A stretch of DNA of 64,000 bases, taken from IMG/VR virus record IMGVR_UViG_3300025133_000023; one strand, given 5' to 3'. Source of the DNA: a virus. The position numbers were made by a program, and so were the translations under genes. The notes under the pieces are model-generated. The model did no database searches. It had not been told where the DNA came from and saw nothing but the letters and a program-made list of their open reading frames with translations. Positions 45,957 to 62,500 of the stretch are shown here, piece by piece (position 1 is the first letter of the stretch; each line of letters opens with the position of its first letter).

Positions 45957-46392
45957 TGGTTGTTCTATTCCTCCTAAAGGGACCTTAGTTAGGAACCATG
46001 GGTAGATTCTATCATAAGATAAGATTCATATAAAGAAAAGAGAATTGGGTGAAAACGAGAGAGAAAAGCTTAATGAAAGCCTAATAGGGAAGTGAAAAAT
46101 GAAAAAGAGTATGGGAGTAGAGTTAAGTAAGGTTAGCTAAGCTAGGGTTGTCGGTTTTTCAAAAAAAACTTATGAAGTTGAGGAATACCTAATGAAATTG
46201 AGAAAAGCCCTATGGGGAAAGAGAAAAGTAAAATAAAATATCGGGGAGGGAGGTATAGAGAGACTAGGACTGTAGGGGTCCCAGTTTTTCGGAGACCCCC
46301 GGGGTCCATATCTGGCATGTAGTCAGGTCTGGTAATCCTAGGCGTCTCACGGGCAACCCTGCCCACTCACACTCTTGAAGGGAGTGTTACAC
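45957..46392. promoter_or_regulatory. Divergent control region at the strand and composition switch
   Basis: 436-nt non-coding gap; purine-rich plus strand at 46020-46260; GGGGTC/GACCCC/GGGGTC inverted repeats at 46275-46306. Confidence 0.6.
46369..46387 (+). promoter_or_regulatory. Conserved hairpin, copy 1 (ACACTC-TTGAAGG-GAGTGT), overlapping the SD
   Basis: Covarying stem shared with 48325, 55908 and 61333. Confidence 0.7.
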
Positions 46393-48177
46393 ATGGCTAC
46401 CATCGATATGTTCCTGTTCGTCCTCTTCGCCATCTGCTTCGCCGCCCCCACCGTCGCCTGGATCTTCCTCATCGTCACCGAGCGGGCCTCGACCTGCTCG
46501 CCCCTCCAGGTCGCCGTGACCTTCACCCCGCCCCTCCCCAGGTACAACGAGGTGGACTACGAGGTGGTGGATGTGTCCCCCATGCCCACCACCTACTCGT
46601 CCATCCTCTTCGTGCGCACACACGTACTGGACCTGCGTCCTGATGGTGATGTCGTGCTCGATGGTGAGTGGAGCATGGTCAAGGCTGAGGACAAGCAGTC
46701 ATACACCATGCGTGCCCATGGTAGCGTGGTGCGCTACCGCTACCACCACAACACCAACTACTCCCGTGCTGTCAACACACGCAGCACCCTCAGCACCACG
46801 ATCACCGTGCATGAGGAGAGGGTCAAGGTGCCTGTGCCCACCCTCACCCCTGAGCCCACCTACCACTACATCCTGGTAGGCAGCACGGCAAGTGAGCAGG
46901 ACATGGTGGACTACGTGTCCGCCTTCGACCTCGTGCTGTATCAGGTCTACCCTGGCTACATCGGGAACACCACTGTATGGGACTTCACCTCCAAGGACGA
47001 CCCGTACACCATCCACAGCTGGGTGTTCCTCGACAATCCCGAGCTGGTCATGGAGACAGAGGAGGAGATGTGGGAGCGCAAGGCTTCCCGTGTCCGTCCC
47101 TCTGCTGCCCTGGGTGTGCGTGGTAGCCACACCAAGGGGTGGAAGCACGACCGCGTGGCCCGACAGCGGTGCGTCTACAAGCACAGCATGGTGATGGACA
47201 AGCAGTGGGGTCACACCACCTACATGCCCACTGATGAGGATGTGCGTGCATGGCAGGCTGATGAGGATGTGCACGTGAGCACCCGCACGGTGCAGTCGAA
47301 CAAGCCCTCTCCTCGCAAGCCCCGGCAGAAGTACAAGGGCAAGGTTGTGCAGGCTGACATCCTCAACGCCGACTACCTCACCGACGCGGTCTGGGAAGCG
47401 AGGGAAGTCAGCAACGACCAGTGGAAGGCTGGTTGGTGCAAGTGGGACGAGATCGACATCGACCTCGAATGGGTCGATATGTCGAACGCCATCGACGCCG
47501 AGGAGCTGCTCCACCAGGGAGAGTGGCCCTTCGAGTTCCTCTGCGACATCTGTGGCAGCAACGCCTGCAGCTGCGAGGAGGACGACGACGGCGAGCACTG
47601 CTGTGGGTATGGTGAGTGCGACTGCGACTTCGGGGATGAGCGGTGCAGCCGATGCAGGCAGTGGTACGCCACGTGCTCGTGTGGTGGCTCGCTGGTCTCC
47701 GAGACCTGGGCCGAGTACGCCAAGAGGGAGGCCTACCTCGACACCGTGGTCGAAGGCAAGACCAACCGTGAATGGGAAGACATCCATAGCTCCCTCAAGG
47801 AGACGGATGAAGGTCCCGGCCAGCAGGCTGACGAGGACTTCAAGCCCGACATGGACGTGCTCTGGGCCAACGTGGTCAAGTCCTTCGAGCTGTTGGGGCA
47901 GTGGCCGTTCGAGTTCCGCTGTGACACCTGTGGGAGCAACGCCTGCTCCTGCGAAGAGGACAAGGCCATCAACGACCAGGAGGAGTACGACAAGGCCAAC
48001 AACCTGTGCCTGAACTGTCACCAGAACCCCTGTTGCTTCGACTGCGTCTACGATGACGATCCGCAGCAGGAAGAGGACGACTTCGGGGCAGAGGCCGAGG
48101 TCGCCAAGCGTAAAGAGGCCAAGACGGACTGGTCCAAGGTCACGATGGAAGACCCCTTTTCCATCACAGACTTCTAG
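46393..48177 (+). CDS. Acidic Cys-rich protein with N-terminal membrane anchor and a duplicated Cys module
   Basis: ATG 46393 after the SD; WPFEFxCDxCGSNACSCEED occurs twice (47524-47580, 47902-47958). Confidence 0.8.
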   Translation: MATIDMFLFVLFAICFAAPTVAWIFLIVTERASTCSPLQVAVTFTPPLPRYNEVDYEVVDVSPMPTTYSSILFVRTHVLDLRPDGDVVLDGEWSMVKAEDKQSYTMRAHGSVVRYRYHHNTNYSRAVNTRSTLSTTITVHEERVKVPVPTLTPEPTYHYILVGSTASEQDMVDYVSAFDLVLYQVYPGYIGNTTVWDFTSKDDPYTIHSWVFLDNPELVMETEEEMWERKASRVRPSAALGVRGSHTKGWKHDRVARQRCVYKHSMVMDKQWGHTTYMPTDEDVRAWQADEDVHVSTRTVQSNKPSPRKPRQKYKGKVVQADILNADYLTDAVWEAREVSNDQWKAGWCKWDEIDIDLEWVDMSNAIDAEELLHQGEWPFEFLCDICGSNACSCEEDDDGEHCCGYGECDCDFGDERCSRCRQWYATCSCGGSLVSETWAEYAKREAYLDTVVEGKTNREWEDIHSSLKETDEGPGQQADEDFKPDMDVLWANVVKSFELLGQWPFEFRCDTCGSNACSCEEDKAINDQEEYDKANNLCLNCHQNPCCFDCVYDDDPQQEEDDFGAEAEVAKRKEAKTDWSKVTMEDPFSITDF

Positions 48178-48210
48178 GCCCTACACCTAGTCGTCGCTCC
48201 CTTCAGGCCA

Positions 48211-48343
48211 CATCCATCCCAATGGGGTGGATGCTGCGCCTTAGTACCAGTGGTGTCCCAGATGGGGCATTACTGTTACTAAGATGCGGTATCCGACCGC
48301 TAGGGGTAATCATACCCCACCTTTGCACTCTTGAAAGGAGTGT
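48211..48343 (+). ncRNA. Structured leader with five consecutive hairpins, ending in conserved hairpin copy 2
   Basis: Stems at 48211-48233, 48241-48282, 48286-48300, 48303-48318 and 48325-48343; several G-U pairs. Confidence 0.55.
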
Positions 48344-48348
48344 TAGTT

Positions 48349-49008
48349 ATGTTGCTGTTGCTGGCCATTTTGGCCATGGTGTCCCTCGCCACCCTCGTCC
48401 GTCTCCAGATCCGGACGGCGTCGAAGAACCGTTTCACCCTCATCGAGGAGATGATCATCATGGGCCCCATGTGGTTCGTGCTGCTCCCGATCATGTCCTG
48501 GATGTTCCCCGACATCTGGGTGGGAGTGATCGGCCACTTCTTCATGAGCTGGGGGTACGTGTACAACACCGTGCTCACGGGGGTGCTGTGTGTGTCGATC
48601 GGATTGAGTCTGGATCGTCCGACTTATCTCTGGGACAAGCCAACGGCTGTCCTGAGTTCCGTCATCCTCCTGGCCTTCGGCCTGGGCATGATGTGGGACC
48701 GCATCCCCTACGTCCAGTGGGACAGCAACGTGCACCAGTTCCTGAAGGACACCTTCGTCCAGTGGATGAACACCTGTGGCCATGCCATGCTCATCCTCGT
48801 GTGGTTCCGGGCCGCTCGGTACTGGGACTGCACCATGGGTCGGGCCTTCATGAACAGCCTCATGTGCAGTGCCAAGGCCATGCGTCTCACGGTCAGGGTG
48901 CTGAAGCGTGACGGTACCTCGACATGGTCGGCGTTCTGGATCATTGCGATCCTCGCCTTCGCCTTCGGGCACAACGTCGTCGTCCTCTTCAACACAATCG
49001 GATACTAA
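48349..49008 (+). CDS. Multi-pass membrane protein
   Basis: About 6 hydrophobic segments; GC3-rich codons. Confidence 0.75.
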   Translation: MLLLLAILAMVSLATLVRLQIRTASKNRFTLIEEMIIMGPMWFVLLPIMSWMFPDIWVGVIGHFFMSWGYVYNTVLTGVLCVSIGLSLDRPTYLWDKPTAVLSSVILLAFGLGMMWDRIPYVQWDSNVHQFLKDTFVQWMNTCGHAMLILVWFRAARYWDCTMGRAFMNSLMCSAKAMRLTVRVLKRDGTSTWSAFWIIAILAFAFGHNVVVLFNTIGY

Positions 49009-49018
49009 GGAGTAGACA

Positions 49019-49111
49019 ATGCTCATCGATGACGACCTGGGCCTCGCCCTCCACCTGTTCATCAACGAGATGAACCTCAAGATCCTGTTGGGCTACATGA
49101 GCCTCAACTAA
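49019..49111 (+). CDS. Small ORF, 30 aa (MLIDDDLGLALHLF...)
   Basis: SD AAGGAG; same codon style as neighbours. Confidence 0.5.
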   Translation: MLIDDDLGLALHLFINEMNLKILLGYMSLN

Positions 49112-49118
49112 CCTTCTT

Positions 49119-49239
49119 CCCAGGGCTGCGTCTGGAGAAACAACGCAGTAACACCCCATCCAGGGTCACAAGGCCTGGAGCCACAATCTCGTGGTAGCTG
49201 TGGAGTGAGTCGATAAAGGGTAACCAATCCCTGTAGGAG
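49119..49239 (+). ncRNA. Structured element, copy 1 (H-type pseudoknot ... TAACCAAT-loop hairpin)
   Basis: Shares CCCAGGGCTGCGTCTGG, CAACGCAG, ACAAGGCC and GGGTAACCAATCCC with copy 2. Confidence 0.6.
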
Positions 49240-49247
49240 TGCTAGAC

Positions 49248-49532
49248 ATGACCAAGCCTTTCCGTTCTCACTTCTGCCCTCGCTGCCGGCACAAGGGCAG
49301 CACTCAGGTGGACAACATGCGCTGCGACGTCTACCTTTGCGGAGGGCCCCATCAGCGGCAGGAGATCTGGGGAGAGGTCCACGAGTGGCCGTCCCAGAAA
49401 ATCATCGTCCGCCACGGGCGATTCGTTAAGGGTGAGCAGCTCGGTGAGGGCGTGGTCTGGGAGGACCAGATCCTCAACGGCACCACCACCATCGTCAAGG
49501 CCGCGAAGGCCATCCTCAACAAGGAGTCCTAG
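49248..49532 (+). CDS. Hypothetical protein with CPRC motif
   Basis: SD TAGGAG; ORF track. Confidence 0.65.
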   Translation: MTKPFRSHFCPRCRHKGSTQVDNMRCDVYLCGGPHQRQEIWGEVHEWPSQKIIVRHGRFVKGEQLGEGVVWEDQILNGTTTIVKAAKAILNKES

Positions 49533-49533
49533 A

Positions 49534-49698
49534 ATGAAGATCAAGCTTGCCGCAATCATCGAGTTCCTCTACATGGCCCAGCGTGACGGCTGGACCCTGG
49601 ACTTCATCCTGCAGCAGTTGCACTTCGTGCACTCGGGTACGCGGGACGAACGCCTGCACGACAACATGATCGTGCTCATCGAGGCCATTGAGGACTAA
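49534..49698 (+). CDS. Small hypothetical protein, 54 aa
   Basis: ATG after TAGA; SD AAGGAG. Confidence 0.6.
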   Translation: MKIKLAAIIEFLYMAQRDGWTLDFILQQLHFVHSGTRDERLHDNMIVLIEAIED

Positions 49699-49706
49699 CC
49701 AACCTC

Positions 49707-49841
49707 ACCCAGGGCTGCGTCTGGGTTATCAACGCAGGAGCTACAAGGCCACTCGTTCTTGAGTGGTGGGGTGCGAAGGCCTAGGCCCCCGTAAGCAAAG
49801 TAGAGGCATCAACAAGGGGTAACCAATCCCCAAGCTAGGAG
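49707..49841 (+). ncRNA. Structured element, copy 2
   Basis: ACCCAG/CTGGGT and CTGCGT/ACGCAG interleaved stems; GGGG-TAACCAAT-CCCC hairpin. Confidence 0.6.
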
Positions 49842-49849
49842 ATAGTCAG

Positions 49850-50242
49850 ATGACCACGCTCGAATTCGCCACCCGTTTCCCCATGTTCCTCATCCTCCTC
49901 CCCACCCTCATCAGCATGGCGCTCCTCATCTACTGCAGCTGGGAGGATGAGATCGTCGCGGTCTACGACTTCGTCACCATGGGCATCAGCTCCTACCTGC
50001 AGCGCCGCACCGCCATCGTGCTGGAAGAGATGGTCGAAGAGGAGGAGAAGGAGGAGTTCATCTTCCCCGAGGGCATCGACTGGGACGGCGTCGAAGACAT
50101 CACCGAAGATGAGGTCTTCGGCTACATGCCCATCCCGGCTTCTACCCCCGAGGGCCGGCGCCAGCACCAGGCGTTCATGCTGTCTGAAGCCCGCGTGGTG
50201 GGGCAGAACAACGATAACATCGACCGCTGCCCCCGCCGTTAG
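49850..50242 (+). CDS. Membrane-anchored acidic protein
   Basis: N-terminal TM segment; SD. Confidence 0.7.
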   Translation: MTTLEFATRFPMFLILLPTLISMALLIYCSWEDEIVAVYDFVTMGISSYLQRRTAIVLEEMVEEEEKEEFIFPEGIDWDGVEDITEDEVFGYMPIPASTPEGRRQHQAFMLSEARVVGQNNDNIDRCPRR

Positions 50243-50272
50243 TTGGTCTACTCCAACTTCCGTAAGGGGGTC

Positions 50273-50620
50273 ATGATCTGCCGTGAATGCGGTGGTGAGT
50301 GTCCCCTGGGGACGGACGACTACGACAGCGTCATCCACCAGGGTGACTGCTCTCGGCTTCGGGTCATCCGAATGCTGAGGCAGTTCCCCATCATCAGCGA
50401 TCTCGAGGTGCAGGCTCACACCTGCCACGTCGATGGTCGCATCATCGACCACGGGATCAGCCGCACTTGCCCTGCCTGGGGTAGGCTCATGCGGGTCATT
50501 TCCCGTAACCCTGTTCCTGGCTGTTTCTGCAGCAAGGAGCAGATCCTGAAGTGCTACAACAAGCACTTCGTCACCTACGAAGAGGACGTGCTCGCCGCGG
50601 CCTTCTTCATCGAAGACTAG
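50273..50620 (+). CDS. Cys/His-rich hypothetical protein
   Basis: CRECGGEC and other Cys pairs; ATG after AAGGGGG. Confidence 0.6.
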   Translation: MICRECGGECPLGTDDYDSVIHQGDCSRLRVIRMLRQFPIISDLEVQAHTCHVDGRIIDHGISRTCPAWGRLMRVISRNPVPGCFCSKEQILKCYNKHFVTYEEDVLAAAFFIED

Positions 50621-50648
50621 CCCATACAGGGCAGAAAGAGAGAAGCTA

Positions 50649-51275
50649 ATGTCTACCAACAACTACGTCAACCTCTTCATCCACGAGGAGACGGTCAAGC
50701 GCACCAAGGTGCTCAAGTACCGCTCCCGGGTGAAGAAGACCGACCGCCTCGGCCGCAGCTACTACAAGCTCGAGGTCACGATGACCAAGGAGATCAAGGT
50801 CAAGCGCCTGGTCTACCGCGATCAGCGCAACGGACGCTTCGCCAGCAAGGCTGCGTTCCTGGCCGAGCAGGAGGGTGAGGTCCTGCCCCAGGTGTGGCCG
50901 AGTAACCCCATGGGTGAGCTTCCTACGACCACGGTGATGAGCATGGAGGGCATCGACGCCGACTGGAAGGTCAAGAGCGAGCTGCTGGAGGCGGCCTACG
51001 ACAGCCAGGAGCTGGCCGAGTGGATGGAGGGCTTCGACGCCTCCCATCCCGTGGGGAGCAAGGCCGAGAAGCGGCTGCCGACGAGCGAGGCCCGCTACAA
51101 CGAGGTCATGGAGTGGCTGCAGTTCGAGCAGAGCTGGGACCACAGCATCCTCGTGGTGGTGGAAACGCCCGAGCCCCGCGTCCTCAACAACCTGGCCTTC
51201 CAGCAGGCCCGCGTCAAGCTGCTCGTCCGCAAGGGCATGAGCAAGGAAGACGCCTACAACGAGGTGATGGCATGA
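50649..51275 (+). CDS. Hypothetical protein, 208 aa
   Basis: High GC3; basic N-terminal half with RDQRNGRF. Confidence 0.75.
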   Translation: MSTNNYVNLFIHEETVKRTKVLKYRSRVKKTDRLGRSYYKLEVTMTKEIKVKRLVYRDQRNGRFASKAAFLAEQEGEVLPQVWPSNPMGELPTTTVMSMEGIDADWKVKSELLEAAYDSQELAEWMEGFDASHPVGSKAEKRLPTSEARYNEVMEWLQFEQSWDHSILVVVETPEPRVLNNLAFQQARVKLLVRKGMSKEDAYNEVMA

Positions 51276-51784
51276 TCAAGTCTCAGACAAACCCGTGGCT
51301 GCACTTTGGTCGGTGCGTGGACGCTCTTCGGAGTGCTCTGCCCATGGCCAAGTTCCTGTACGAGGGAGATCTCGTTCAGGACCACATGCACACCAACACC
51401 CCCACCCCCACCCTGTTCGTTCGACACGAGTGCGGACGGATCGTGGGCCACGTGCGCTACGACAAGAGCATGGTCTGCAGTCGACGGTACGTGTCCTACT
51501 ACACCCGTCTCAGCGGTGGCAAGGGTGGCGGCGGCGAGGTCACCATCGAGGAGCTCTTGCGGGCGTTCAAGGAGACGTACAAGGACAGCGAGCCGATTCC
51601 CTACCCGCCGAAGCCCCTGTGGCTGGCCGAGAAGAACTACCGCTGGTTCACGTTGCAGATGGCAGTGTCGGAAACGTTCTGGCACATCCTCGACCTCCGG
51701 TTGGATCGGCACAAGTCCGACCAGCGTGTGGGTACCATTCGTCCCGGTCGTGTCAGCGGCTGGGACATCAACTGGAGCCAGTAG
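51272..51784 (+). CDS. Hypothetical protein, 170 aa
   Basis: ATGA overlap with the upstream stop. Confidence 0.65.
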   Translation: MIKSQTNPWLHFGRCVDALRSALPMAKFLYEGDLVQDHMHTNTPTPTLFVRHECGRIVGHVRYDKSMVCSRRYVSYYTRLSGGKGGGGEVTIEELLRAFKETYKDSEPIPYPPKPLWLAEKNYRWFTLQMAVSETFWHILDLRLDRHKSDQRVGTIRPGRVSGWDINWSQ

Positions 51785-51785
51785 C

Positions 51786-51941
51786 ATGGACTTCCCCAAG
51801 ACCAAGGGCGCCACCTACGTCAACCTCCTGAACATTCTGGACCAGCTCCGGTTCCAGAAGTTCATCAATCAGAATCGCTGTGAGGACTGGGTCGTCGAGA
51901 TCTGCTCCTACATGGCACCCATCAACAAGCAGGAGAACTAG
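51786..51941 (+). CDS. Small hypothetical protein, 51 aa
   Basis: TAG-C-ATG junction. Confidence 0.6.
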   Translation: MDFPKTKGATYVNLLNILDQLRFQKFINQNRCEDWVVEICSYMAPINKQEN

Positions 51942-51943
51942 CC

Positions 51944-52126
51944 ATGTTCGAGACCCTTTTCTCTTCCCTGTCCCTTCAGGTGGAACTGGACGGCTTCAAC
52001 AATGCGCTCAAGGCGCTCCAGGCCGAGTACACCGAAGAAATGGACCAGGTCGTCTGGGACTGGTCCTGGGAGCTCGAAGACGACCACATCGCATACGCCA
52101 ACACCCTCACCCCGGCTGTTGCCTAG
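51944..52126 (+). CDS. Small acidic protein, 60 aa
   Basis: SD CAGGAG; ORF track. Confidence 0.65.
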   Translation: MFETLFSSLSLQVELDGFNNALKALQAEYTEEMDQVVWDWSWELEDDHIAYANTLTPAVA

Positions 52127-52177
52127 CTAGACTCAACTCATCCACGCCAGGAATGGCGAGATCAAGGAGAAGAAGTA

Positions 52178-52789
52178 ATGCCCGTTTTCGACCCCAACAA
52201 CCCCAATGATAAGGTGGCCCTGGCCGCCTTCAGCAGCAACCACTTCTACGCCGACACCCGCAACCCGCTCCTCAAGGAGGACAACACCATGACCAGCAAG
52301 CTCAAGAACATCGCCACCCTCGCCCTCATCATCTTCTGCCTGGGGGCGGTGCTGTTCCTCACCATCCGCGCCGTCAGCGTGCTCAGCAACCCCACGAGCA
52401 ACGGCATCATCACCATCCCGTCCTGGGGTGAGGGCGTCCTCCTCTGCGGGGACAAGCACAACAAGGTGACCGAGGGGGACAACCACTACTGGAACGACGT
52501 CTACGGTGCCTGGACGGTCAACGCCGGCCACATGGACGACATCGAGCTGGACGAGCTCAAGTATGTGGCCACCTTCACCTGCCCCTACAACACCAAGGGC
52601 ATCCGGGGCATCGCCACGCACGACCACTTCTTCACCAACGACGGAAAGGAGATCAAGTTCCACGCCGTTCAGATCGTGGAAGAGGGTGTCGACATCAGCA
52701 ACGGTGGACTCAAGACCGCCGACGCTGAGCTGGAGCAGCACATGCGCTACGTGTGTGACCATGACTTCAACGCCATCCTGAGGAAGTAG
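52178..52789 (+). CDS. Membrane-anchored or exported protein; possible second start at 52289
   Basis: Hydrophobic segment after internal AAGGAGG-N8-ATG. Confidence 0.75.
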   Translation: MPVFDPNNPNDKVALAAFSSNHFYADTRNPLLKEDNTMTSKLKNIATLALIIFCLGAVLFLTIRAVSVLSNPTSNGIITIPSWGEGVLLCGDKHNKVTEGDNHYWNDVYGAWTVNAGHMDDIELDELKYVATFTCPYNTKGIRGIATHDHFFTNDGKEIKFHAVQIVEEGVDISNGGLKTADAELEQHMRYVCDHDFNAILRK

Positions 52790-52826
52790 TCGCTAGAAAC
52801 ACCCCAAACTTGAACTGATCGCACTT

Positions 52827-52860
52827 ACTGCTCATGGCCTAATTCTGGGTCATGGGCAGT
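52827..52860 (+). promoter_or_regulatory. 15-bp RNA hairpin with 3 G-U pairs
   Basis: ACTGCTCATGGCCTA-ATTC-TGGGTCATGGGCAGT; no U-tract. Confidence 0.6.
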
Positions 52861-52895
52861 GGGGGTTATTAGTTCAACTGCTCATAGGAGATAGA

Positions 52896-53033
52896 ATGAA
52901 AAGCTGCTTTTCCATCCTTGCCCCCCTGGCGATCATCGCCCTCATCTTTTTCATGGGCCTCACCAAGGCCTTCGTCATCTTCATCATGATCATGATCGTC
53001 GGGGGATTCACCCTCGGCCTGCTGGGAGAATAA
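52896..53033 (+). CDS. Small hydrophobic protein, 45 aa
   Basis: SD TAGGAG; two TM-like segments. Confidence 0.6.
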   Translation: MKSCFSILAPLAIIALIFFMGLTKAFVIFIMIMIVGGFTLGLLGE

Positions 53034-53039
53034 AAATAA

Positions 53040-53405
53040 ATGTCTAGCCTGTTCACCGTTCCCGCCACCAAGTACCTCACCGTTCAGTTCTTCATGGGGA
53101 AGCGCGACGACCGCACGTTCTCGGTGTGGTGCAAGACCAACATGGGCTTCAAGCCCGACGAGCCCCACGAGTGGTACTACGACGTCAAGCTCGGTGAGCC
53201 CGGGGAGCTGATGGTCTCCGTGCCCAAGAGCCACAGCAGCGAGAACTGGTTGCGGTGGGGGGATCGCGGTACCGAGATCGACATCAAGGACGCCTACGAC
53301 TTCCTGGCCCAGCTGGAGAAGGAGCAGTCGCACCGTGGCGACATCAAGCTGACCGTCAACATGCCCCCGTCCGAGTTCAACATCAACTTCGTGGAGGCCA
53401 AGTAG
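53040..53405 (+). CDS. Hypothetical protein, 121 aa
   Basis: ORF track; codon style. Confidence 0.7.
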   Translation: MSSLFTVPATKYLTVQFFMGKRDDRTFSVWCKTNMGFKPDEPHEWYYDVKLGEPGELMVSVPKSHSSENWLRWGDRGTEIDIKDAYDFLAQLEKEQSHRGDIKLTVNMPPSEFNINFVEAK

Positions 53406-53407
53406 TC

Positions 53408-53638
53408 ATGAACAACAACATCGCGCTCATCGTGCTCGGCTGCCTCTGCCTCGGGTGGGTCCAGTTCGCTACCGTCCTCATCGCCTATAGTGCCACTCAG
53501 GCCAAGAGCAAGCCCCTCGGGGTGATGTCGGTGCTGTGCTGGCTCATCCTCGCCTTCCTCTGCTCGGTCATCGTCATCGACCAGTTCATCCTCCTCCCCT
53601 GGTTGGAGGAGACCAACTTCCACGTCTGCGGCAAGTAG
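53408..53638 (+). CDS. Small membrane protein, 76 aa
   Basis: TAGTCATG junction; two TM segments. Confidence 0.65.
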   Translation: MNNNIALIVLGCLCLGWVQFATVLIAYSATQAKSKPLGVMSVLCWLILAFLCSVIVIDQFILLPWLEETNFHVCGK

Positions 53639-53663
53639 CCCGTAGAAGAAAGGAGAATGCTAG

Positions 53664-54068
53664 ATGTCTGAGAAAATCAAGTGGCGGTTCCAGTTCCGTA
53701 CGGGACTGGACAAGCAGTGCAGCTGGACCAACCCCGACGAGATGTATCCACATTTCGATCGAGAGATGATCACCGAAAACATGATCACGGGATTCATGTC
53801 CAAGTACCTTTGGGGACCGAACAAGAAGACGGTCCTCGAAGTTCATGACGAGCACAAGGGTGACAAGCACCTGCAGGACGTGACCGCTGCCAACACCTAC
53901 TGGGTGTGGCGCACCGGCTTCACGATCTACGTGTGCCACGGTGTCCACTTCAAAACCAACAACATCGAGCCCAAGAAGATCGGAGCCCACAAGTGTCACA
54001 TCTCGGAAGAGGTGATCGACACGGTGTGGGAGCTCATGTTCGAGGGTGCGGCTGAGGAGAACGGTTAG
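53664..54068 (+). CDS. Hypothetical protein, 134 aa
   Basis: SD AAGGAG. Confidence 0.7.
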   Translation: MSEKIKWRFQFRTGLDKQCSWTNPDEMYPHFDREMITENMITGFMSKYLWGPNKKTVLEVHDEHKGDKHLQDVTAANTYWVWRTGFTIYVCHGVHFKTNNIEPKKIGAHKCHISEEVIDTVWELMFEGAAEENG

Positions 54069-54254
54069 ATGGCCAAGAAGAAGTTTGAGAGGAACAACAG
54101 TCTCGGGGGACGAACCGCCTCGCGGGTGAACAAGCTGATCTCGCAGCGACGGCAGGTCGCTCTTGACAACCGGTGGGATCGCGGACCTCGCGTGACCACT
54201 ACCAACCGTAACAAGGACTGGAAGCGCATCAGCATCCAGTCCGAGGAGAGCTAG
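54069..54254 (+). CDS. Small basic protein, 61 aa
   Basis: TAG-ATG abutment. Confidence 0.6.
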   Translation: MAKKKFERNNSLGGRTASRVNKLISQRRQVALDNRWDRGPRVTTTNRNKDWKRISIQSEES

Positions 54255-54256
54255 TC

Positions 54257-55105
54257 ATGTTCGGAATAGCACAGCAGTTCAGCGAAGAGGGCCTGACCAA
54301 GAAGGTGCTGGAGCGCGTCTTCTTCCTGGCCTTCGGCGTCTGGGCCATGTTCTTCATCATGGACCACATGGCGAGCACGTGGGCGACTGTCATCGCCTCT
54401 CTCCTGGCGGTGGGTACGGCTCTCAGCAGCTCCCTGCCGCGTTGGGCGTTGCTCTGGTACGAGCGTCGCCACTTCCTGATCGAAATCACCTTCGGGGGGG
54501 TGTCATGGCTCCTCAGCGGGGGAGCTGGCGGCATCGGACTCGTCAACTTCATGTTCGCGTCGACGGCGGCTGTGAGCTTCATCAAGATGCTCAACGCCCG
54601 CCGAGGCACACTCAAGGGAGAAACCTTCTACCAATACCTCCTCAAGAGCCGCTTCCACTGGCTCTTTGCCTACGGGTTCCGACCCATGGACAAGAACTGG
54701 CGATGGCCCTCGACCCGTGTCGAGGACGAGGATGGCGTACACTACGAGTTCGAGAAGGCGGGCTTCCTTGATTGGAAGTACCTGCTCGGGCACTGGCGGA
54801 ATCGATCGATCAAGGGCTACGACTACTGGGTCACGCCTGAAGTCCATCCCATGCCCCCGCTGTGGATGAAGTACGTCAACAGTAGCCAGTACTGGCTTGC
54901 TGTCGATGACCACAACGCTTCGATGGCTTCCAGCCAGCACATGACCCAGCTCGTGGGAGTGCGGAACGAGGCCGTCAAGAAGCTCGAAGAGCTGCTCTCC
55001 AACAAACCCTCCAACAAGAACCAGAACTCGGTGTGGATCGCACGGATGCATCGCCTCCAGATCCTCATCGACTCCCTCAACACCCAGATCGAAGGGATTA
55101 AGTAG
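54257..55105 (+). CDS. Membrane protein, 282 aa
   Basis: Four N-terminal TM-like segments; TAGTCATG junction. Confidence 0.75.
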   Translation: MFGIAQQFSEEGLTKKVLERVFFLAFGVWAMFFIMDHMASTWATVIASLLAVGTALSSSLPRWALLWYERRHFLIEITFGGVSWLLSGGAGGIGLVNFMFASTAAVSFIKMLNARRGTLKGETFYQYLLKSRFHWLFAYGFRPMDKNWRWPSTRVEDEDGVHYEFEKAGFLDWKYLLGHWRNRSIKGYDYWVTPEVHPMPPLWMKYVNSSQYWLAVDDHNASMASSQHMTQLVGVRNEAVKKLEELLSNKPSNKNQNSVWIARMHRLQILIDSLNTQIEGIK

Positions 55106-55107
55106 TA

Positions 55108-55584
55108 ATGAACATCGACAAGCCCAAGTGGGCGCAACTCCTTGACAGCGGAACGGATCTCCTCCTCCGTGGTGGAGACACCATCATGGACAACACCTTG
55201 GGGCGGCTGAAAGCTCCTCTGGCTGATGAGGAAAAGGCCCGCATCTACGTCGAGACCACGACCAATGTCCTCTCCCACACCACGGGAGCGGACCTCGGTG
55301 ACCAGGAGAAGCTGGCGAAGTTGGCAGCGATAGAGGACCAGCTTGCCCAGTATGGCGAGCTCAACCGTCAGCAGCGGAACAGTGTTGGGAAGCAGTTGCT
55401 CAAGGACATGAGCAACCCCGACACGTTCGTCGCGGAAGAAGAGAAGAAGGAAGTGGAAGAGCGTCCCGCGTGGCAGTGGGTGCTGTTCCTCATCGTTAAT
55501 TTGTTTATGCTCCTGTTCAACCGGGGACTCTACACCAACAAGGAGGTCGAGAACTACATCAACCAGAGCAAGGAGAAGAAGTGA
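55108..55584 (+). CDS. Hypothetical protein with C-terminal TM segment
   Basis: ORF track. Confidence 0.7.
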   Translation: MNIDKPKWAQLLDSGTDLLLRGGDTIMDNTLGRLKAPLADEEKARIYVETTTNVLSHTTGADLGDQEKLAKLAAIEDQLAQYGELNRQQRNSVGKQLLKDMSNPDTFVAEEEKKEVEERPAWQWVLFLIVNLFMLLFNRGLYTNKEVENYINQSKEKK

Positions 55585-55835
55585 TGCGTACCAGAATCCT
55601 CATGGTCGGTGAGATCGACGGCGACGGCATCCAGTTCCAGCTGGATGAAACCAAGAACACCTACATGTGGAAGGGTGAAGCCACCCTCGGCTACGGCATC
55701 CACCGCATCGTCCGCGACACGGACATGAACGAGGTGGAAACCCTCCACGATGTTCAGCAGTCCGTTGCTGGCGCCCTGTTCGAGTTCAACAAGCTGGCCG
55801 TCCTGATCAAGGCTGGTGCTTTCAAGTCCAACTAG
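55584..55835 (+). CDS. Hypothetical protein, 83 aa
   Basis: TGATG overlap; SD AAGGAG. Confidence 0.7.
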   Translation: MRTRILMVGEIDGDGIQFQLDETKNTYMWKGEATLGYGIHRIVRDTDMNEVETLHDVQQSVAGALFEFNKLAVLIKAGAFKSN

Positions 55836-55907
55836 AGGAGGCAGAGGAAATGTGCATTCGTGGTCCACCGTCCTTCTCTTCAACAGAGACGGACACCAAC
55901 AACATAC

Positions 55908-55922
55908 GCTCTTGAAAGGAGC
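55908..55922 (+). promoter_or_regulatory. Conserved hairpin, copy 3 (GCTC-TTGAAAG-GAGC)
   Basis: Same loop, compensatory stem change. Confidence 0.65.
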
Positions 55923-55928
55923 AATCTC

Positions 55929-56372
55929 ATGGAAGACATCCGCAACAAGTACTTCATCCTCGAAGACGATATGGGGAACCAGTACGTTGAGTACGCCACC
56001 TCCGACACCCAGGCCTTGGAGCAGGCAGAAGAAAAGTGGCCCACGGTCACCTTCGTCCGCATCACCTTCCACGGAACCAACCCCCCGCTCTGGTACAAGC
56101 AGAGCAACAAGGAGAACAAGATGAACACCAACACCCAGGCCGGATTCACTCTCATCGAGCTCATGATCGTCATCGTGATCATCAGCATCATCGGGGCCCT
56201 GGTCCTCTCCAACTTCGACATCATCGGCACCCTCCTCGGTGCCGTCACGTTCGTCGTGTTCGTGCTCGTGGGTTGCGCCATCAGCGCGGGCTACAGCTCG
56301 GTCAAGTCGATCAAGCAGAAGATGGACAACACGATGTCTTTCACCCCCAACAACAACAAGAAGGGAAACTAG
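55929..56372 (+). CDS. Protein with an internal type IV prepilin-like N-methylation motif (own SD and ATG at 56121)
   Basis: MNTNTQAG-FTLIELMIVIVIISIIGALVL. Confidence 0.8.
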   Translation: MEDIRNKYFILEDDMGNQYVEYATSDTQALEQAEEKWPTVTFVRITFHGTNPPLWYKQSNKENKMNTNTQAGFTLIELMIVIVIISIIGALVLSNFDIIGTLLGAVTFVVFVLVGCAISAGYSSVKSIKQKMDNTMSFTPNNNKKGN

Positions 56373-56374
56373 TC

Positions 56375-57790
56375 ATGGGTGCACACTGGCTCGGACAGAA
56401 CTACATCGCCTGCAAGGGTGACGGCACCACCACCGCCAAGGGTGGAATCGCATTGAGCCCGAAGGAGGTCACCTGCCGCCGATGCCGTCGGTGGATCGTG
56501 ACCCTCATGGGAGCGAAACGATTCGACCGAAACTGGACAACGGAAGACGTCCAGGCCGCTGAGATCAACAACAACCCGGAGAACACCGACATGCCCCCGA
56601 CCGACCCCACCACGCCCGCCGCCCCCAACGCCTACAACTGCGCCAACTGCAACAAGGAGCAGAAGCTGACGATCGTCACCGACCAGAAGGTCTTCTGCGA
56701 CGAGAAGTGCATGCTGGAATACGTGCAGGCGAGTGCCAAGGAGCAGGATGATATGGACAAGGAGATCGACGACCTGATCGCCAAGGAGCGGGAGATCAAC
56801 AGCCCCAAGGGCACCACCCCCAAGACGGAGAGCAAGACCATGCCCGACCCGACCCCCACCGCCCCGACCAACGACAACCCCAACAAGGATGACAAGACCA
56901 TGACCGACCCGACCCCCACCGCCCCGCCCCTGTTCACCTACGACCCCGAGAACAAGGAGACCGCGTTCCACTACCAGAACCTCCCCGCCGCCATGGCTGA
57001 CTGGAAGGAGGCGATCGTCTTCAGCTACATGGGCAAGGACGACAAGAAGGTCATCCGCCGCGAGGAGATGGAGGTCAAGGACCTGATGAACCTGTTCGAG
57101 ACCATCCTGAACAACCGCACGGACAAGTACGGCTTCAACCCCATCCACCAGTACGTCTCCCTGACCGGTGACGTCACGCGGATGTTCGTCTACGCCGTGG
57201 ACCGCAAGACGAAGAAGGCGACCCACACCCTGATCGAGCTCAAGCTCAAGGGCAAGGGCGACAAGGCCCGCGTGGTGGACACCTGCCACAGCAACCCCCG
57301 GGGCAAGGGCAACCACCCCAACATGGTCGCGCTCGGCGTGGCCTTCTCGGCCTTCAAGGCCAACACCAACGACAAGGAGAGTGACATGGAGAAGAAGAAC
57401 GTGTTCATCCGCATGGCGCACAGCGTCAAGGACATGGCCATCAAGTTCGGCAAGAAGATGATGGGCTGGGCCCGCAGCTTCATGGGCTGGAACATCGAGC
57501 AGCGCTACGCCATCCTGGGTTCCGTGAGCGCGATGTACGGCGGCATGTGGTTCTGGTACCTGATGGGTGGCGCGCTGCCCATCTACGTGTTCGGCGTGAG
57601 CAACATCCTCTGGGTCGCGACCTGCGTCGGCTTCCTGGCGTCTTACGCGATCCTGGCCTACCTCTCCTACGCGGCCATCTACGCCGTCGTCGCGGGACTC
57701 GTGGCTCTGAAGAACACCGTGGGTGAGTTCATGGCCCTGAGCGATGCGTCCGTCTCCCCCGAGATGACCACCGCTGCCGCCAACGCCTAG
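56375..57790 (+). CDS. Multidomain protein: Zn-finger-like motifs, Pro/Thr repeats, C-terminal TM segments
   Basis: CRRC; CANC...FCDEKC; KTM(P/T)DPTPTAP twice; near-saturated GC3. Confidence 0.8.
   Translation: MGAHWLGQNYIACKGDGTTTAKGGIALSPKEVTCRRCRRWIVTLMGAKRFDRNWTTEDVQAAEINNNPENTDMPPTDPTTPAAPNAYNCANCNKEQKLTIVTDQKVFCDEKCMLEYVQASAKEQDDMDKEIDDLIAKEREINSPKGTTPKTESKTMPDPTPTAPTNDNPNKDDKTMTDPTPTAPPLFTYDPENKETAFHYQNLPAAMADWKEAIVFSYMGKDDKKVIRREEMEVKDLMNLFETILNNRTDKYGFNPIHQYVSLTGDVTRMFVYAVDRKTKKATHTLIELKLKGKGDKARVVDTCHSNPRGKGNHPNMVALGVAFSAFKANTNDKESDMEKKNVFIRMAHSVKDMAIKFGKKMMGWARSFMGWNIEQRYAILGSVSAMYGGMWFWYLMGGALPIYVFGVSNILWVATCVGFLASYAILAYLSYAAIYAVVAGLVALKNTVGEFMALSDASVSPEMTTAAANA
56833..56926 (+). 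repeat. 34-nt direct repeat (1 mismatch), 60-nt period
   Basis: CAAGACCATG(C/A)CCGACCCGACCCCCACCGCCCCG at 56833 and 56893. Confidence 0.85.
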
Positions 57791-57875
57791 TCTGGCAACC
57801 AACAACCCATAGCTGAAGTCTAACCCAGGGGAATGGCACGTGGACCCATACTAACCGTGCCCAAAAGGAGAACAC

Positions 57876-58382
57876 ATGTTCAACTGGTTGTGGAGCAAGA
57901 TCAAGGCTCCCTTTGAGACAGTTCCCGAGACCTTCGAGGTTCGGGATAGCGAGAACAACGCCATCGTGGCATACCAGCGGCCTGAGGAGATGGCCATCAA
58001 GCGGTGGGTGGCTGGAGCAGGCTACTCGATCCGTGAAGACATCGAAGAGGCCGTGGAGCTGGGGCAGGCGAGCACGCCCATGATCGGACTCGCCGTCCTC
58101 TACATCGGGATCATGTGGATCGGCTTGCTGGTCAGTGTGATCTTCGGCATGGCCCTGAAGGGAGCTGGTCTCCTGGCGATCTTGGTAGTGGTGTGGAAGA
58201 TCACCTACGTCATGGTCGTCGCCACCCTGTTCCTCGTCAGCATCTACGGGGCGTTCCTCGGACTCGCTCTCGTGATCGCGAAGCGGGGATGGAAGCTGTT
58301 CAACCGCTACATCCGGCGTGAGCCGATGTCGTGGAAGGATGCCTTCCAGCGTACCGTGGGCCGATTCGTCTACGCCAACTAA
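57876..58382 (+). CDS. Membrane protein, 168 aa
   Basis: SD AAAGGAG; hydrophobic C-terminal half. Confidence 0.75.
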   Translation: MFNWLWSKIKAPFETVPETFEVRDSENNAIVAYQRPEEMAIKRWVAGAGYSIREDIEEAVELGQASTPMIGLAVLYIGIMWIGLLVSVIFGMALKGAGLLAILVVVWKITYVMVVATLFLVSIYGAFLGLALVIAKRGWKLFNRYIRREPMSWKDAFQRTVGRFVYAN

Positions 58383-58513
58383 CCCATAGCTAGGAGAACA
58401 ACATGAACCCGATTAGGGCTCCTTGAGACTAACTGTTAACCTCGACCATGGGCGTATGTCGTTAAAGATCGCCCACCTTCGAGACAATCAACGTTACACG
58501 GAGATAGAGAACA

Positions 58514-59179
58514 ATGGCTACCAAGAGCAACGACCGCACCGGCCTCAACCGTCACCCCTTCAGCGATACGGGCGTCCACCCGTGGCGTTACCTGAACGTT
58601 CACATCAGCAAGATGCCGAAGCCCGTCCCGATGGTGGACTTCGAGCGGCTCGCTGAAACGGAGGGCGTCAGCCCCACCTTCATCGGCTACATCCGCAGCC
58701 ACGAGGGTGACTTCCTGGGTGATGATGGCATCGCGTGGACCGGCAACTACCGTGGGCTGAACGGGTTCCTGACGAAGGCTCTGTTCGAGCGGATCGATGG
58801 CATCCGCGAGATCATCGTCAAGAAGTCCTTCCTCGTGAAGGCCGACAAGACGATCAAGGGTGGGCACATGCCCACCTCCAAGTACAGCGAGAGCCTGTAC
58901 TGCCACCTCGTCATCGGTCCCGTCAAGGGCGAGAACCTGCAGCCGGACACGTCGTACGTCCAGAAGGGAGACAAGTACTACAAGGTGGTGGAGCTGAAGG
59001 GCTTCAACATCGTGGACGTGAACGACAACAGCTACGGGCTGCCCAAGCCCTGCGAGCACCCCGACGCCCCCAAGATCCGCAAGTGGGTCCAGGGGCTCTA
59101 CGCGGCTCACGCGGCGAAGATGGCCAAGGCCAAGGCCAAGGCGGCTGACGTCGACACGACCGAGGACAACCCGCTCTAG
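58514..59179 (+). CDS. Hypothetical soluble protein, 221 aa
   Basis: Strong codon bias; KAKAKA tail. Confidence 0.75.
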   Translation: MATKSNDRTGLNRHPFSDTGVHPWRYLNVHISKMPKPVPMVDFERLAETEGVSPTFIGYIRSHEGDFLGDDGIAWTGNYRGLNGFLTKALFERIDGIREIIVKKSFLVKADKTIKGGHMPTSKYSESLYCHLVIGPVKGENLQPDTSYVQKGDKYYKVVELKGFNIVDVNDNSYGLPKPCEHPDAPKIRKWVQGLYAAHAAKMAKAKAKAADVDTTEDNPL

Positions 59180-59193
59180 GTCAACAGAGCGAT

Positions 59194-59227
59194 CAGGGTG
59201 GGGGCTCTTAATTGAGCCCTCGCCCTG
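59194..59227 (+). promoter_or_regulatory. 14-bp RNA hairpin with 2 G-U pairs
   Basis: CAGGGTGGGGGCTC-TTAATT-GAGCCCTCGCCCTG; no U-tract. Confidence 0.6.
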
Positions 59228-59251
59228 GGTGGGAGAAAGGAGGTAGCAACA

Positions 59252-59464
59252 ATGGCCGCATTTGATGACTCTTCGTATCGCCGTGCTGCTTACAATGCGT
59301 TCTGCCCCCTGTGCTACACAAGGGTCAGAAAGAATGATCTCATCTGTCCACCCTACGGTGGTGGTAAGTGGGCACACTACTCGTGTGCGTTTGAGGTCAA
59401 TCATGGACGACCGCCCCAGCCCCCCCGGAGGGAGAAAGAAGAAAACCATGACCAAACTGAGTAA
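59252..59464 (+). CDS. Small Zn-binding protein (CPLC...WAHYSC)
   Basis: SD AAGGAGGT. Confidence 0.55.
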   Translation: MAAFDDSSYRRAAYNAFCPLCYTRVRKNDLICPPYGGGKWAHYSCAFEVNHGRPPQPPRREKEENHDQTE

Positions 59465-59609
59465 TCTACTCGAAACCTCAATCCCACCCCCGGAGGGGAA
59501 TCAAACCCTCCCCGGAGGGGAGTACAACCAGAACAACAACAACCATTCCTACTACTACTCTACTACTACTATAACCACAACTAACAATACCCTTAGAAAG
59601 GGAAAACAA

Positions 59610-60107
59610 ATGAGCGTTTTCGCAACCATGACTGCATGTGCAGTCGGTACCACTGTCACTGTCGGTCTGATTAAGACCGTCAAGGACCTCATCGTCCACC
59701 GCAAGGACCGCAAGCACGAGGCCTGGACCTGGAAGAAGAAGCTGAAGAGCTTCGCCTGGAGCTTGGCGTCCCTGCCTCTCACCGTTCTCAGCACGCCCTG
59801 GGAGGTCTTCATCAACGACCTGGGCTGGGGCCACACCTACAGGGGTGTGTGGTACCATCGTGTCCTGGCTGCTGCTCTCGTGGGCATCATTGCCTTCTTC
59901 AAGCCCCTGTGCTTGGCGACGGCTTTGATGTTCTACGGCTGCACCGGCCTTTACACGTGGTTCAAGGAGTGGGAGAACGACTACCACAACTCCTACCGTA
60001 GGGTCGTTAGTGAGTTCAGCAAGGCTGAGCCTGCTGCCACGCCCAAGCCGTCCGGCATCCACCACGAGTGGAAGGTCGTCCCCCCGGAGGGAGCTGGTGC
60101 CGAGTAG
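59610..60107 (+). CDS. Membrane protein (the frame is also open from ATG 59448)
   Basis: AAAGGGA SD-like site before 59610; the upstream in-frame part is low-complexity N/Y/T. Confidence 0.7.
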   Translation: MSVFATMTACAVGTTVTVGLIKTVKDLIVHRKDRKHEAWTWKKKLKSFAWSLASLPLTVLSTPWEVFINDLGWGHTYRGVWYHRVLAAALVGIIAFFKPLCLATALMFYGCTGLYTWFKEWENDYHNSYRRVVSEFSKAEPAATPKPSGIHHEWKVVPPEGAGAE

Positions 60108-60300
60108 GAACTACTGGAAGGCAAAGTATCGCGGAAGCGTCTGCATTCCCGGAGGGCATACGATTAACGGCGGTACGTTGATCTGTGTGTGGGGAGACCG
60201 GACAAACAAGCGATACGCATGCAAGCGCTGTGCGGAGAAGCATGACAAGAAGCAGAAGGTGGAGAAGAAGAAGCAGGACCCGCAAGGCTCCCTCTTCTAG
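60097..60300 (+). CDS. Small Cys-containing basic protein
   Basis: GTG after GGAGGGAG; YACKRCAE. Confidence 0.55.
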   Translation: MPSRNYWKAKYRGSVCIPGGHTINGGTLICVWGDRTNKRYACKRCAEKHDKKQKVEKKKQDPQGSLF

Positions 60301-60900
60301 ACTCCCCACTCAACGTTAACCTTAACTCCCTGTATGGGGACCTTAGTACACTGGTTAAGATTGAGGTTCGAGTTGTCTTCCCATACACAGCAATGTGTAT
60401 TCAGATGCTTGAATCGACGTTTTTGCTAGTGTGTTGAGGTCCCCCTATAGGGAAGAAAGGAGGTGTGAGCTTGGGTATACGAACCCAAGCGAGGAGAATG
60501 CCAGCACCCTAGGGGAAGGGGCTGGTTTGGGATTGTGAAGGTGTGAAGTTAGCGGAGTTTGGCCTAAACTCCGCGTAGTGACACCCAATCAACCTACCTG
60601 TCATTTGCAAGGGAATCTGCCCCATGTAGCATAGCTCTCTATGTGGGACAAGTTGTACTATATGCTGACGCTGTGCCTTGCAAGGCTATGACACCCCACT
60701 ATGAGCTTTCTGCAATCTCCCTTCAACAGCTATGCTGATTACCCCCCTGGCAACAGGGGGCACCATGGGAGCAACCCTACTAGCAAGGGTTTAATGTGCG
60801 GCGTTCAACTCCGCTTCAACAATCCTCAATCAAAGAGGGAGACAAGCATGATGCTGTTGTTGGGGAGTAAGATGAGAGGGTGAGTCTTTGTGGGGGACAG
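60301..60900 (+). ncRNA. Candidate structured non-coding RNA region
   Basis: Hairpins at 60383-60400 (GCAA loop), 60469-60490, 60552-60574 and 60743-60760 (GCAA loop); no convincing ORF. Confidence 0.4.
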
Positions 60901-60911
60901 ACCCTTAAATC

Positions 60912-60974
60912 AACCCTACCCCCATTAAACGAACCCTACCTCCATCTAAACACGAACCCTACCTCCATCTAAAC
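60912..60974 (+). repeat. Three tandem 20-23-nt repeats (AACCCTACCTCCATCTAAAC consensus)
   Basis: Units at 60912, 60932 and 60955. Confidence 0.8.
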
Positions 60975-61332
60975 TACTCTTCGAGCTCTTAACCCTATTC
61001 ATATTCAAGGGGAGAGACTCTGATAAGGTTAACTAACTCTACTAGGGTCATACCCATAGGGAGTATGGTAATGACAAAGGGGATAAGCGTTCGGGTCTGA
61101 TGACACCTCACTCACTAAGCCTAACCAACCTCACCTCCTACCTATCTTTCCATCTTCACCACTAACAAGGGCTAGCATCCTAACCAACAACAACGCCTGT
61201 CTTACTTCACCAACACTCAACCTAGGGTACATACCCAAACTACCCACTAACCTCTCCCTTTTACGGTACTAGGCACAAGGTTCAAGTGTCCAAAGAAGAG
61301 AGCTTTTTTGTTGTGAAACCTGTTAATCACCC

Positions 61333-61351
61333 TGATTCTTGAAAGGAATCA
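61333..61351 (+). promoter_or_regulatory. Conserved hairpin, copy 4 (TGATTC-TTGAAAG-GAATCA)
   Basis: Same loop, different fully paired stem. Confidence 0.7.
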
Positions 61352-61360
61352 ATACCAATC

Positions 61361-62491: not shown

Positions 62492-62500
62492 GAGAACACC

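Follow-up and report, generated by a model that had tools for sequence, protein, structure and literature searches.

Recurrent hairpins that bury the Shine-Dalgarno sequence before phage genes: a candidate cis-acting mask on translation initiation

Introduction

Why should a small hairpin with a nearly constant loop and changing stems stand directly in front of several genes of one phage? Hairpins that mask a Shine-Dalgarno (SD) sequence are textbook elements, mostly known as one-off regulators, and the question is posed by a 64,000-nucleotide stretch of the virus record IMGVR_UViG_3300025133_000023 (the window, by which we mean the whole stretch analysed), where four hairpins with a TTGAA(A/G)G loop lead genes of the right arm. 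An original prediction made from this DNA had put forward two answers, a recognition element for the RNA polymerase (RNAP) of the phage, akin to the hairpin promoters of phage N4, or an operator for one phage regulator, with a slight leaning towards a role in RNA. Here, we describe the structure, covariation and distribution of the hairpin and weigh these answers alongside others. The hairpin buries the SD and most likely acts on the sense strand, as RNA, and its best reading, which we hold with somewhat more confidence than doubt, is an RNA mask that acts in cis on translation initiation; judged by sequence, it belongs to a widespread, phage-enriched class of ribosome-binding site (RBS) hairpins of the form CUC-YY-GAARG-GAG.

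Four hairpins with covarying stems

The four hairpins are as follows.

46369..46387, + strand: hairpin 1, ACACTC / TTGAAGG / GAGTGT; loop start 46375; ATG 46393; covariance score 33.5 bits
48325..48343, + strand: hairpin 2, GCACTC / TTGAAAG / GAGTGT, with an outer G.U; loop start 48331; ATG 48349; 31.9 bits
55908..55922, + strand: hairpin 3, GCTC / TTGAAAG / GAGC; loop start 55912; ATG 55929; 31.4 bits
61333..61351, + strand: hairpin 4, TGATTC / TTGAAAG / GAATCA, SD AAGGAA; loop start 61339; ATG 61361; 32.3 bits

Their sequences and coordinates are exactly those first given for them, and a covariance model built from the four and run on both strands of the window with filters off, the window-scale form of a check that the original prediction had proposed, returns precisely these four at 31.4-33.5 bits, the next best match in the 64 kb reaching 12.5 bits. 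The Watson-Crick stems of hairpins 1-4 measure 6, 5 (plus the outer G.U), 4 and 6 base pairs (bp), and 5, 5, 6 and 9 nucleotides (nt) separate the end of the stem from the ATG. The 3' arm is the SD core, which lies 7-8 nt from the ATG (12 nt at hairpin 4); at hairpin 1, the SD (GGGAG) is made up of the loop edge and the 3' arm. This placement, 5-9 nt before an ATG with the SD buried, had been anticipated, as had the position behind larger intergenic gaps, which span 436, 171, 93 and 477 nt before the four genes, the 93-nt gap holding an open reading frame (ORF) of 21 codons.

Pairing around the loop greatly exceeds expectation. The heptamer TTGAARG occurs 31 times in the window, and at five of these places it is flanked by at least four Watson-Crick pairs, where chance would give about 0.12 (31/256). 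Hairpins 1-4 account for four of the five, and the remaining one lies within a coding region on the - strand (10144-10170). Differing stems are kept paired, as predicted: counted over the four hairpins, 93.8% of cells are paired and four pairs have changed on both sides, compared with 0-1 in slid controls. Hairpins 1 and 2 are identical at 20 of 21 bases (CACTCTTGAA-R-GGAGTGTTA) and probably represent one lineage, so that the covariation within the window rests on about three independent stems. Rfam and tRNA scans returned no match. A further hairpin at 49751-49768 (CCACTC-GTTCTT-GAGTGG) pairs CACTC with GAGTG as hairpins 1 and 2 do, but has another loop and no SD, and scores 10 bits with the covariance model on the opposite strand.

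Fold, strand and the nature of the loop

At all four sites, the sense RNA has the hairpin as its minimum-free-energy structure, both alone and within contexts of 91-95 nt, and its SD bases are thereby paired. Each loop is narrowed by U.G and U-A (or U.G) pairs until only GAA stays open as a triloop, giving eight pairs at hairpin 1; such zipping had been proposed from the letters and is seen in the RNA folds, whose free energies (-7.8, -8.1, -6.2 and -6.2 kcal/mol for hairpins 1-4) are similar despite the unequal stem lengths. The inner U.G pairs are impossible on the opposite strand, where antisense RNA forms the outer stem and a 7-nt loop only, at -4.4 to -6.6 kcal/mol, leaving the sense RNA 1.2-3.2 kcal/mol more stable; the early leaning towards a role in RNA is strengthened by this asymmetry. 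As single-stranded DNA, either strand reaches -2.4 to -4.5 kcal/mol, and the template strand never forms a triloop: its stem of 4-6 bp closes seven unpaired bases (CCTTCAA or CTTTCAA) at -2.4 to -4.1 kcal/mol. An attempt to read the strand from the first unpaired position beyond the stem was uninformative, as it reflected flanking composition.

What, then, does the loop represent? It had been described as near-invariant, and TTGAA(A/G)G is indeed present in all four hairpins, but it consists mostly of the extended SD GAAAGGAG, the complement of the CCUCCUUUC tail of 16S rRNA. Further genes of the right arm, such as the one starting with the ATG at 53664, use this extended SD unpaired, and five of the seven "invariant" loop bases thus amount to no more than SD consensus. 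Conservation of the loop would accordingly be owed chiefly to the extended SD rather than to a dedicated protein, and the distinguishing mark of the four sites is, on this comparison of sequences, the upstream anti-SD-like arm (N)CTCTT.

Distribution among phages and bacteria

The design recurs well beyond the window. With the 15-mer of hairpin 3 (GCTCTTGAAAGGAGC) as the query for a scan of IMG/VR, matches were found in at least 120 contigs and in many unrelated sequence contexts, and among the matches listed 95 of 130 occurrences (73%) lie 3-9 nt before an ATG. A control 15-mer with the same SD and a scrambled, non-pairing 5' arm was found in 22 contigs and precedes an ATG in 4 of 22 (18%). 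Bacterial genomes hold at least 120 matches to the 15-mer, with an ATG downstream in 36 of 120 among the matches listed. Again among the matches listed, 17 of 120 viral loci hold extra copies with other stems, as do 3 of 120 bacterial loci, where none of the extra copies is RBS-like; the 22 control loci hold none.

The geometry of the loop is also preferred. At further GAARGGAG sites in the loci examined (n=146), CTC stands exactly 2 nt upstream in 31, as against 2-9 at other distances, a peak implying that the 7-nt loop spacing is selected. The two intervening bases in these 31 CTC-NN-GAARGGAG sites are TT in 15, CC in 6 and TC in 6, with AC also present, and the first two loop bases are thus preferentially, not always, UU. 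Twenty distinct 5' arms occur among 104 unique sites, and both other window stems also precede ATGs in unrelated contigs, including the 6-bp TGATTC/GAATCA stem. In IMG/VR, the hairpin is frequently found behind T-rich, terminator-like tracts. A comparison of the window proteins with about 170 motif-bearing loci, Arthrobacter phage Circum and its relative gave no homologue, the sole match being a phosphatase in a control locus. A hairpin found in so many unrelated phages looks like a general phage translation-control device, not the promoter of a phage's own RNAP. String and keyword searches of the literature found no description of the motif, TTGAAAGGAG matching only unrelated primer sequences, and the recurrence of one specific hairpin design across unrelated phages appears to be undescribed so far. 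A link to membrane proteins was considered and dropped (21% vs 15% in a noisy control).

Complete genomes and an orthologous site

Two complete motif-bearing genomes, Arthrobacter phage Circum (NC_041948.1; matched by an identical terminase) and a related 55-kb IMG/VR phage, show how the element is used within a phage. Circum has six copies among its 99 genes, five of them leading annotated genes (gp28, gp49, gp51, gp53 and gp81), all hypothetical, and its relative has nine, eight of which stand before ATG-led ORFs, the genes behind them being small and hypothetical. Taking the two genomes together, many copies lie a few nucleotides after an upstream stop codon, which makes the genes they lead internal cistrons and not transcript starts. 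The paper on the Arthrobacter phages does not mention the motif. The GenBank starts of Circum genes 28, 51 and 53 and of Correa gene 47 are TTG codons within the hairpin loop; with an in-frame ATG and a well-spaced SD 15 nt downstream, these start calls are probably five codons too long.

The gp49 site allows orthologous hairpins to be compared. Circum has GCTC/GAGC where Correa, with a gp49 of about 87% identity, has TTTC/GAGA, a replacement of G-C by U-A together with a change from C-G to U.G that retains pairing in the sense RNA alone. In the more distant Shiba and Salk, the gene at this place overlaps its neighbour and has no hairpin, and TTTTC/GAAAA stands at another gene. Compensatory pairing is found in the gp49 change between Circum and Correa, in the 20 distinct 5' arms and in the four doubly changed pairs of the window alike.

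The compensatory change at gp49 also bears on the idea that the hairpin is a cassette linker, that is, mainly a short homology patch for shuffling accessory genes, with translation control secondary. The hairpin does go with orphan or accessory genes, in the window and in the Arthrobacter phages, and the PeSLs of T4-type phages are repeated regulatory cassettes in which a stem-loop and an SD flank ORFans (PMC2839356). Just 13-19 nt are common to the copies, however, the stems are unlike from copy to copy, which lowers homology, no sigma-70-type promoter is attached, and the gp49 change points to selection on pairing; we therefore consider a linker role very unlikely.

A promoter or other signal in DNA

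Could the element act in DNA, either as a promoter or recognition hairpin for an injected, N4-like phage RNAP or as a palindromic operator for a DNA-binding protein? The four sites head gene clusters in an arm with a composition of its own, and hairpin promoters are used by the virion RNAP (vRNAP) of N4 (PMC4496689). Briefly, N4 promoters are GC-rich triloop hairpins on the template strand, with a 5-7-bp stem and a 3-nt loop, centred at -11 and having a purine at -11 and G at -10 and -8, and they are read by a T7-like enzyme (PMC4496689). The window hairpins share with them a small size, variable stem bases, a purine-containing central triplet and a position at the heads of early units. They differ in the features that define the N4 promoters: the N4 signal lies in template-strand DNA, whereas the triloop in the window is confined to the sense strand and overlaps a functional SD; the template strand offers a weak 4-6-bp stem with a 7-nt loop; and in place of a GC-rich heptamer with defined bases, that loop is pyrimidine-rich and A/T-rich. 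A transcript starting about 11 nt past the loop centre would begin 3-8 nt before the ATG, deleting a well-spaced SD.

Other lines of evidence point the same way. The core TCTTGAAAGGA is not palindromic and its half-sites covary rather than being conserved, which speaks against DNA binding by a dimer. For two-barrel phage vRNAPs, the promoters known so far are linear and AT-rich (PMC10770324), and the large proteins of the window yielded no T7-like RNAP domain. The 1768-residue protein, with which transcription assays had been suggested, has no match in five motif-bearing IMG/VR contigs of 140-240 kb, in a search run without a positive control, so that the identical motif, which is also present in a siphovirus of Arthrobacter, is common in phages that lack a match to that protein. 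A scan for sigma-70-like promoters gave two sites in 19 kb, neither at a hairpin (promoters of a phage RNAP may differ from the sigma-70 type), and no enriched k-mer beyond SD-type words is shared upstream of the four sites. With no triloop on the template strand and with the motif occurring in phages that share no window protein, the proposal of an N4-type recognition element is not upheld, and we judge a DNA-level signal of any kind highly improbable, marginally more so than the linker. Three narrower candidates were also set aside: TTGAAA as a -35 box, which has no consistent -10 box 16-18 nt downstream (judged by eye); a shared promoter motif at the four sites, where only SD-type words are enriched; and a boxB/nut-like antitermination site, the loop not being a GNRA-like pentaloop and the element standing on internal cistrons in other phages.

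A protein reader or a protective structure

Operators at SD sites are known for the MS2 coat protein, T4 gp43 and RegA, and CsrA, and a conserved loop on a variable stem that overlaps the RBS is classic operator anatomy. A phage- or host-encoded RNA-binding protein that reads the UUGAARG loop on any stem could co-regulate the four genes, and the restriction of the hairpin to a subset of genes (4 of about 27 here and 6 of 99 in Circum) and the TT that opens the loop in 15 of the 31 CTC-NN-GAARGGAG sites would both suit such a regulon. The loop is a poor recognition site in other respects, since five of its seven bases belong to the extended SD and its first two positions vary across phages (CC, TC, AC). 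The motif is, moreover, common to phages without any protein shared with the window, which makes a host component such as the ribosome the more likely reader, if there is one. No RNA-binding family was detected by Pfam and PHROGs in six large left-arm proteins and 20 right-arm ORFs, and for a CsrA-type operator a loop-presented GGA is expected, whereas here the loop ends with the first G and the 3' arm takes up GA. Of the original suggestion of an operator for one phage regulator, the SD-burying structure survives and the single regulator is weakened, by a loop that is mostly extended SD and by a motif that crosses unrelated phages; we rate a dedicated protein reader as rather unlikely.

The hairpin might instead hide GGAG from endonucleases that are SD-directed or specific for single strands (RegB-like enzymes, host RNases or toxins) or block 5'-to-3' decay that follows cleavage further upstream, giving longer-lived messages. 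T4 RegB cleaves GGAG in the ribosome sites of early genes, and secondary structure protects against it (PMC3014915); the class is enriched in phages and frequently follows T-rich, terminator-like tracts, and all four window sites lie behind long non-coding leaders. Neither the six large left-arm proteins nor the 20 right-arm ORFs include a RegB-like or other nuclease gene, and many copies elsewhere lead internal cistrons a few nucleotides past a stop codon, which also counts against this reading. We regard protection as the main function as less likely again than a protein reader, though not as remote as a signal in DNA.

Relation to described systems

The fourU RNA thermometer, reportedly described for Salmonella agsA by Waldminghaus and colleagues in 2007, resembles the window hairpin in that uridines hold the AGGA of the SD, by U-A and U.G pairing, in a short stem that makes a marginally stable mask. 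Thermometers occur singly, on genes for heat shock or virulence; the window hairpin is multi-copy, and temperature control is not apparent in a marine phage.

The closest described system consists of the start-associated sequences (SAS) of Cluster K mycobacteriophages (Pope and colleagues, 2011), asymmetric motifs of about 13 nt that contain AGGAG, have complementary outer bases (GGG...CCC) and lie 3-7 nt before gene starts, with a proposed function in translation initiation (PMC3203893). Like the SAS, the window motif is multi-copy, keeps to one orientation and stands before the starts of non-structural genes at a similar distance, with ATG preferred (PMC3203893). Its sequence, (N)CTC-TTGAARG-GAG(N), does not follow the SAS consensus 5'-GGGATAGGAGCCC, its SD lies in the 3' arm where that of the SAS would lie in the loop, and its stems covary across unrelated phages, unlike the invariant SAS of a single cluster.

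Short hairpins also sequester the SD of the T4 genes e, soc, 49 and I-TevI in transcripts that read in from upstream (PMC3014915). The T4 masks contain a late promoter, and late transcripts thus lack the 5' arm (PMC3014915); in the window, the sigma-70 scan and the k-mer search found no promoter-like sequence so placed, and many copies elsewhere lead internal cistrons. The PeSL cassettes of T4-type phages (PMC2839356) are alike in combining a repeated intergenic stem-loop with an SD before orphan genes of a plastic region, but they carry a strong sigma-70 early promoter joined to a G/C-rich terminator stem 5' of an unpaired SD. The two sigma-70-like sites in the 19 kb scanned lie away from the hairpins.

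A mask on translation initiation

A cis-acting mask would work as follows. The SD core, (A/G)GGAG or AGGAA, together with the next 1-4 bases would pair with the upstream arm, (N)CUCUU or UUCUU, round the GAA triloop. As the predicted stability is modest and alike across sites (-6 to -8 kcal/mol), loading of the 30S subunit would be gated or throttled, not abolished, and the anti-SD-like arm, with its apparently deliberate U.G wobbles, may serve to keep the stability of the mask roughly constant. The mask could open by breathing, against the better-matched anti-SD of 16S rRNA, or through a ribosome arriving from upstream, as the short ORF at hairpin 3 may permit. Such a local fold would also make the RBS a self-contained module, insulated from long structured leaders. 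We infer from this model in which direction, and how strongly, translation is affected, as well as the absence of a trans-acting reader.

Several considerations weigh against this account. The analysis covered 64 kb of the roughly 190-kb genome of an uncultured marine phage, compared with unrelated phages only, and the enrichment test used one control 15-mer, which contains CpG. Opening the SD is predicted to cost 4.5-9 kcal/mol at the four sites, which is high for the right arm and not unique to them, three further right-arm genes being equally occluded by unrelated structures, and strong repression is therefore not claimed. TT is favoured at the 5' end of the loop beyond what SD pairing needs, and a loop reader could be the cause. 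Coupling to upstream translation is possible at most at hairpin 3, since the four sites follow long leaders and not upstream stops. Finally, rather than throttling, the hairpin could stabilise or activate, or be neutral.

A broader proposal would take CUC-YY-GAARG-GAG as a pan-phage gated RBS, convergent or horizontally spread, on accessory and early genes, which would be read by a conserved component of the host (30S subunit, S1 or an RNase) or would shield SD sequences against SD-directed nucleases. We think this unlikely, if slightly less so than a dedicated protein reader; were it true, it would constitute a class-specific rule of translation or stability for phage messages, so far undescribed.

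Genes and surroundings of the hairpins

The genes behind the four hairpins, and the one short ORF ahead of a hairpin, are listed here, with the G+C content at third codon positions (GC3) where available.

46393..48177, + strand: gene behind hairpin 1, 594 residues, hydrophobic N-terminus; GC3 0.84; an orphan whose sole database match is itself
48349..49008, + strand: gene behind hairpin 2, 219 residues, signal- or transmembrane-like N-terminus; GC3 0.85; no family match
55929..56372, + strand: gene behind hairpin 3, 147 residues, prepilin N-methylation motif at residues 68-93 (PF07963, E 2e-8)
61361..61801, + strand: gene behind hairpin 4, 146 residues; GC3 0.84; no family match
55850..55915, + strand: upstream ORF of 21 codons, SD GAGGAGG; within the 93-nt gap, with its TGA stop inside the loop of hairpin 3

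Among the four sites, only hairpin 3 has an upstream ORF with an SD, and since the stop of this ORF lies inside the loop, a finishing ribosome would melt the 5' arm, a possible form of coupling. The wider idea that the TGA of the loop serves as the stop of an upstream gene was rejected: in-phase frames are no more open than others (12, 17 and 10 of 98 reaching 60 codons or more), and a credible ORF is found only at hairpin 3. The hairpin 3 gene also has an internal ATG at 56121 with an AAGGAG of its own, and two isoforms are possible. Within the 594-residue gene, a 67-nt duplication of 85% identity (47517-47583 and 47895-47961) encodes a Cys-rich segment, which suggests a repeated small domain.

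The hairpin block, from 46.4 to about 62 kb on the + strand, has a gene GC3 of 0.8-0.94 as against 0.37-0.55 in the virion genes of the left arm, and codon style switches sharply at the divergence point (46393-62500, GC 58%; 5527-45956, GC 47%). Searched against Pfam and PHROGs, the 20 right-arm ORFs are all orphans except for the prepilin-type N-methylation motif and a phosphatase. Relatives were scarce: a nucleotide search of 45.9-49.1 kb against GenBank phages and protein-guided locus searches of IMG/VR, with the 594-, 1242- and 243-residue proteins as well as with a two-sequence alignment, found no match, and a scan of JGI metagenomes gave a 1.1-kb fragment only. The 1242-residue protein has one relative, at 82%, on a 117-kb contig.

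Other structures occupy the same arm. A second hairpin family with GGGG/CCCC-type stems and the loop TAA(T/C)CA(A/T)(A/T) lies directly 5' of SDs at 48303-48318, 49216-49231 and 49815-49832, the latter two copies ending repeated elements of about 120 nt that start with CCCAGGGCTGCGTCTGG (49119 and 49708). Directly 5' of hairpin 4, a 480-nt non-coding stretch contains 2.9 copies of a 23-nt tandem repeat (60912-60974; unit AACCCTACCTCCATCTAAACACG) with an anti-SD-like CCTCC core. The strongest terminator-like structure of the right arm is an 18-bp interrupted hairpin at 52824-52863, without a clean T tract, after a gene ending at 52789.

Significance

For the phage at hand, the hairpins drop out as evidence for how a putative injected RNAP locates early genes in the window. 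More generally, one 13-nt design stands before hundreds of genes in uncultured marine, soil and other phages as well as in cultured Arthrobacter phages, its pairing version strongly favoured and maintained by compensatory change. Arthrobacter sp. ATCC 21022 and phage Circum form a teaching-lab system suited to direct testing. If the design governs the translation of accessory and early genes by a common rule, it would help to predict the expression levels of orphan phage genes, allow start-codon calls to be corrected where GenBank genes begin at the loop TTG, and provide a compact natural RBS module for engineering.

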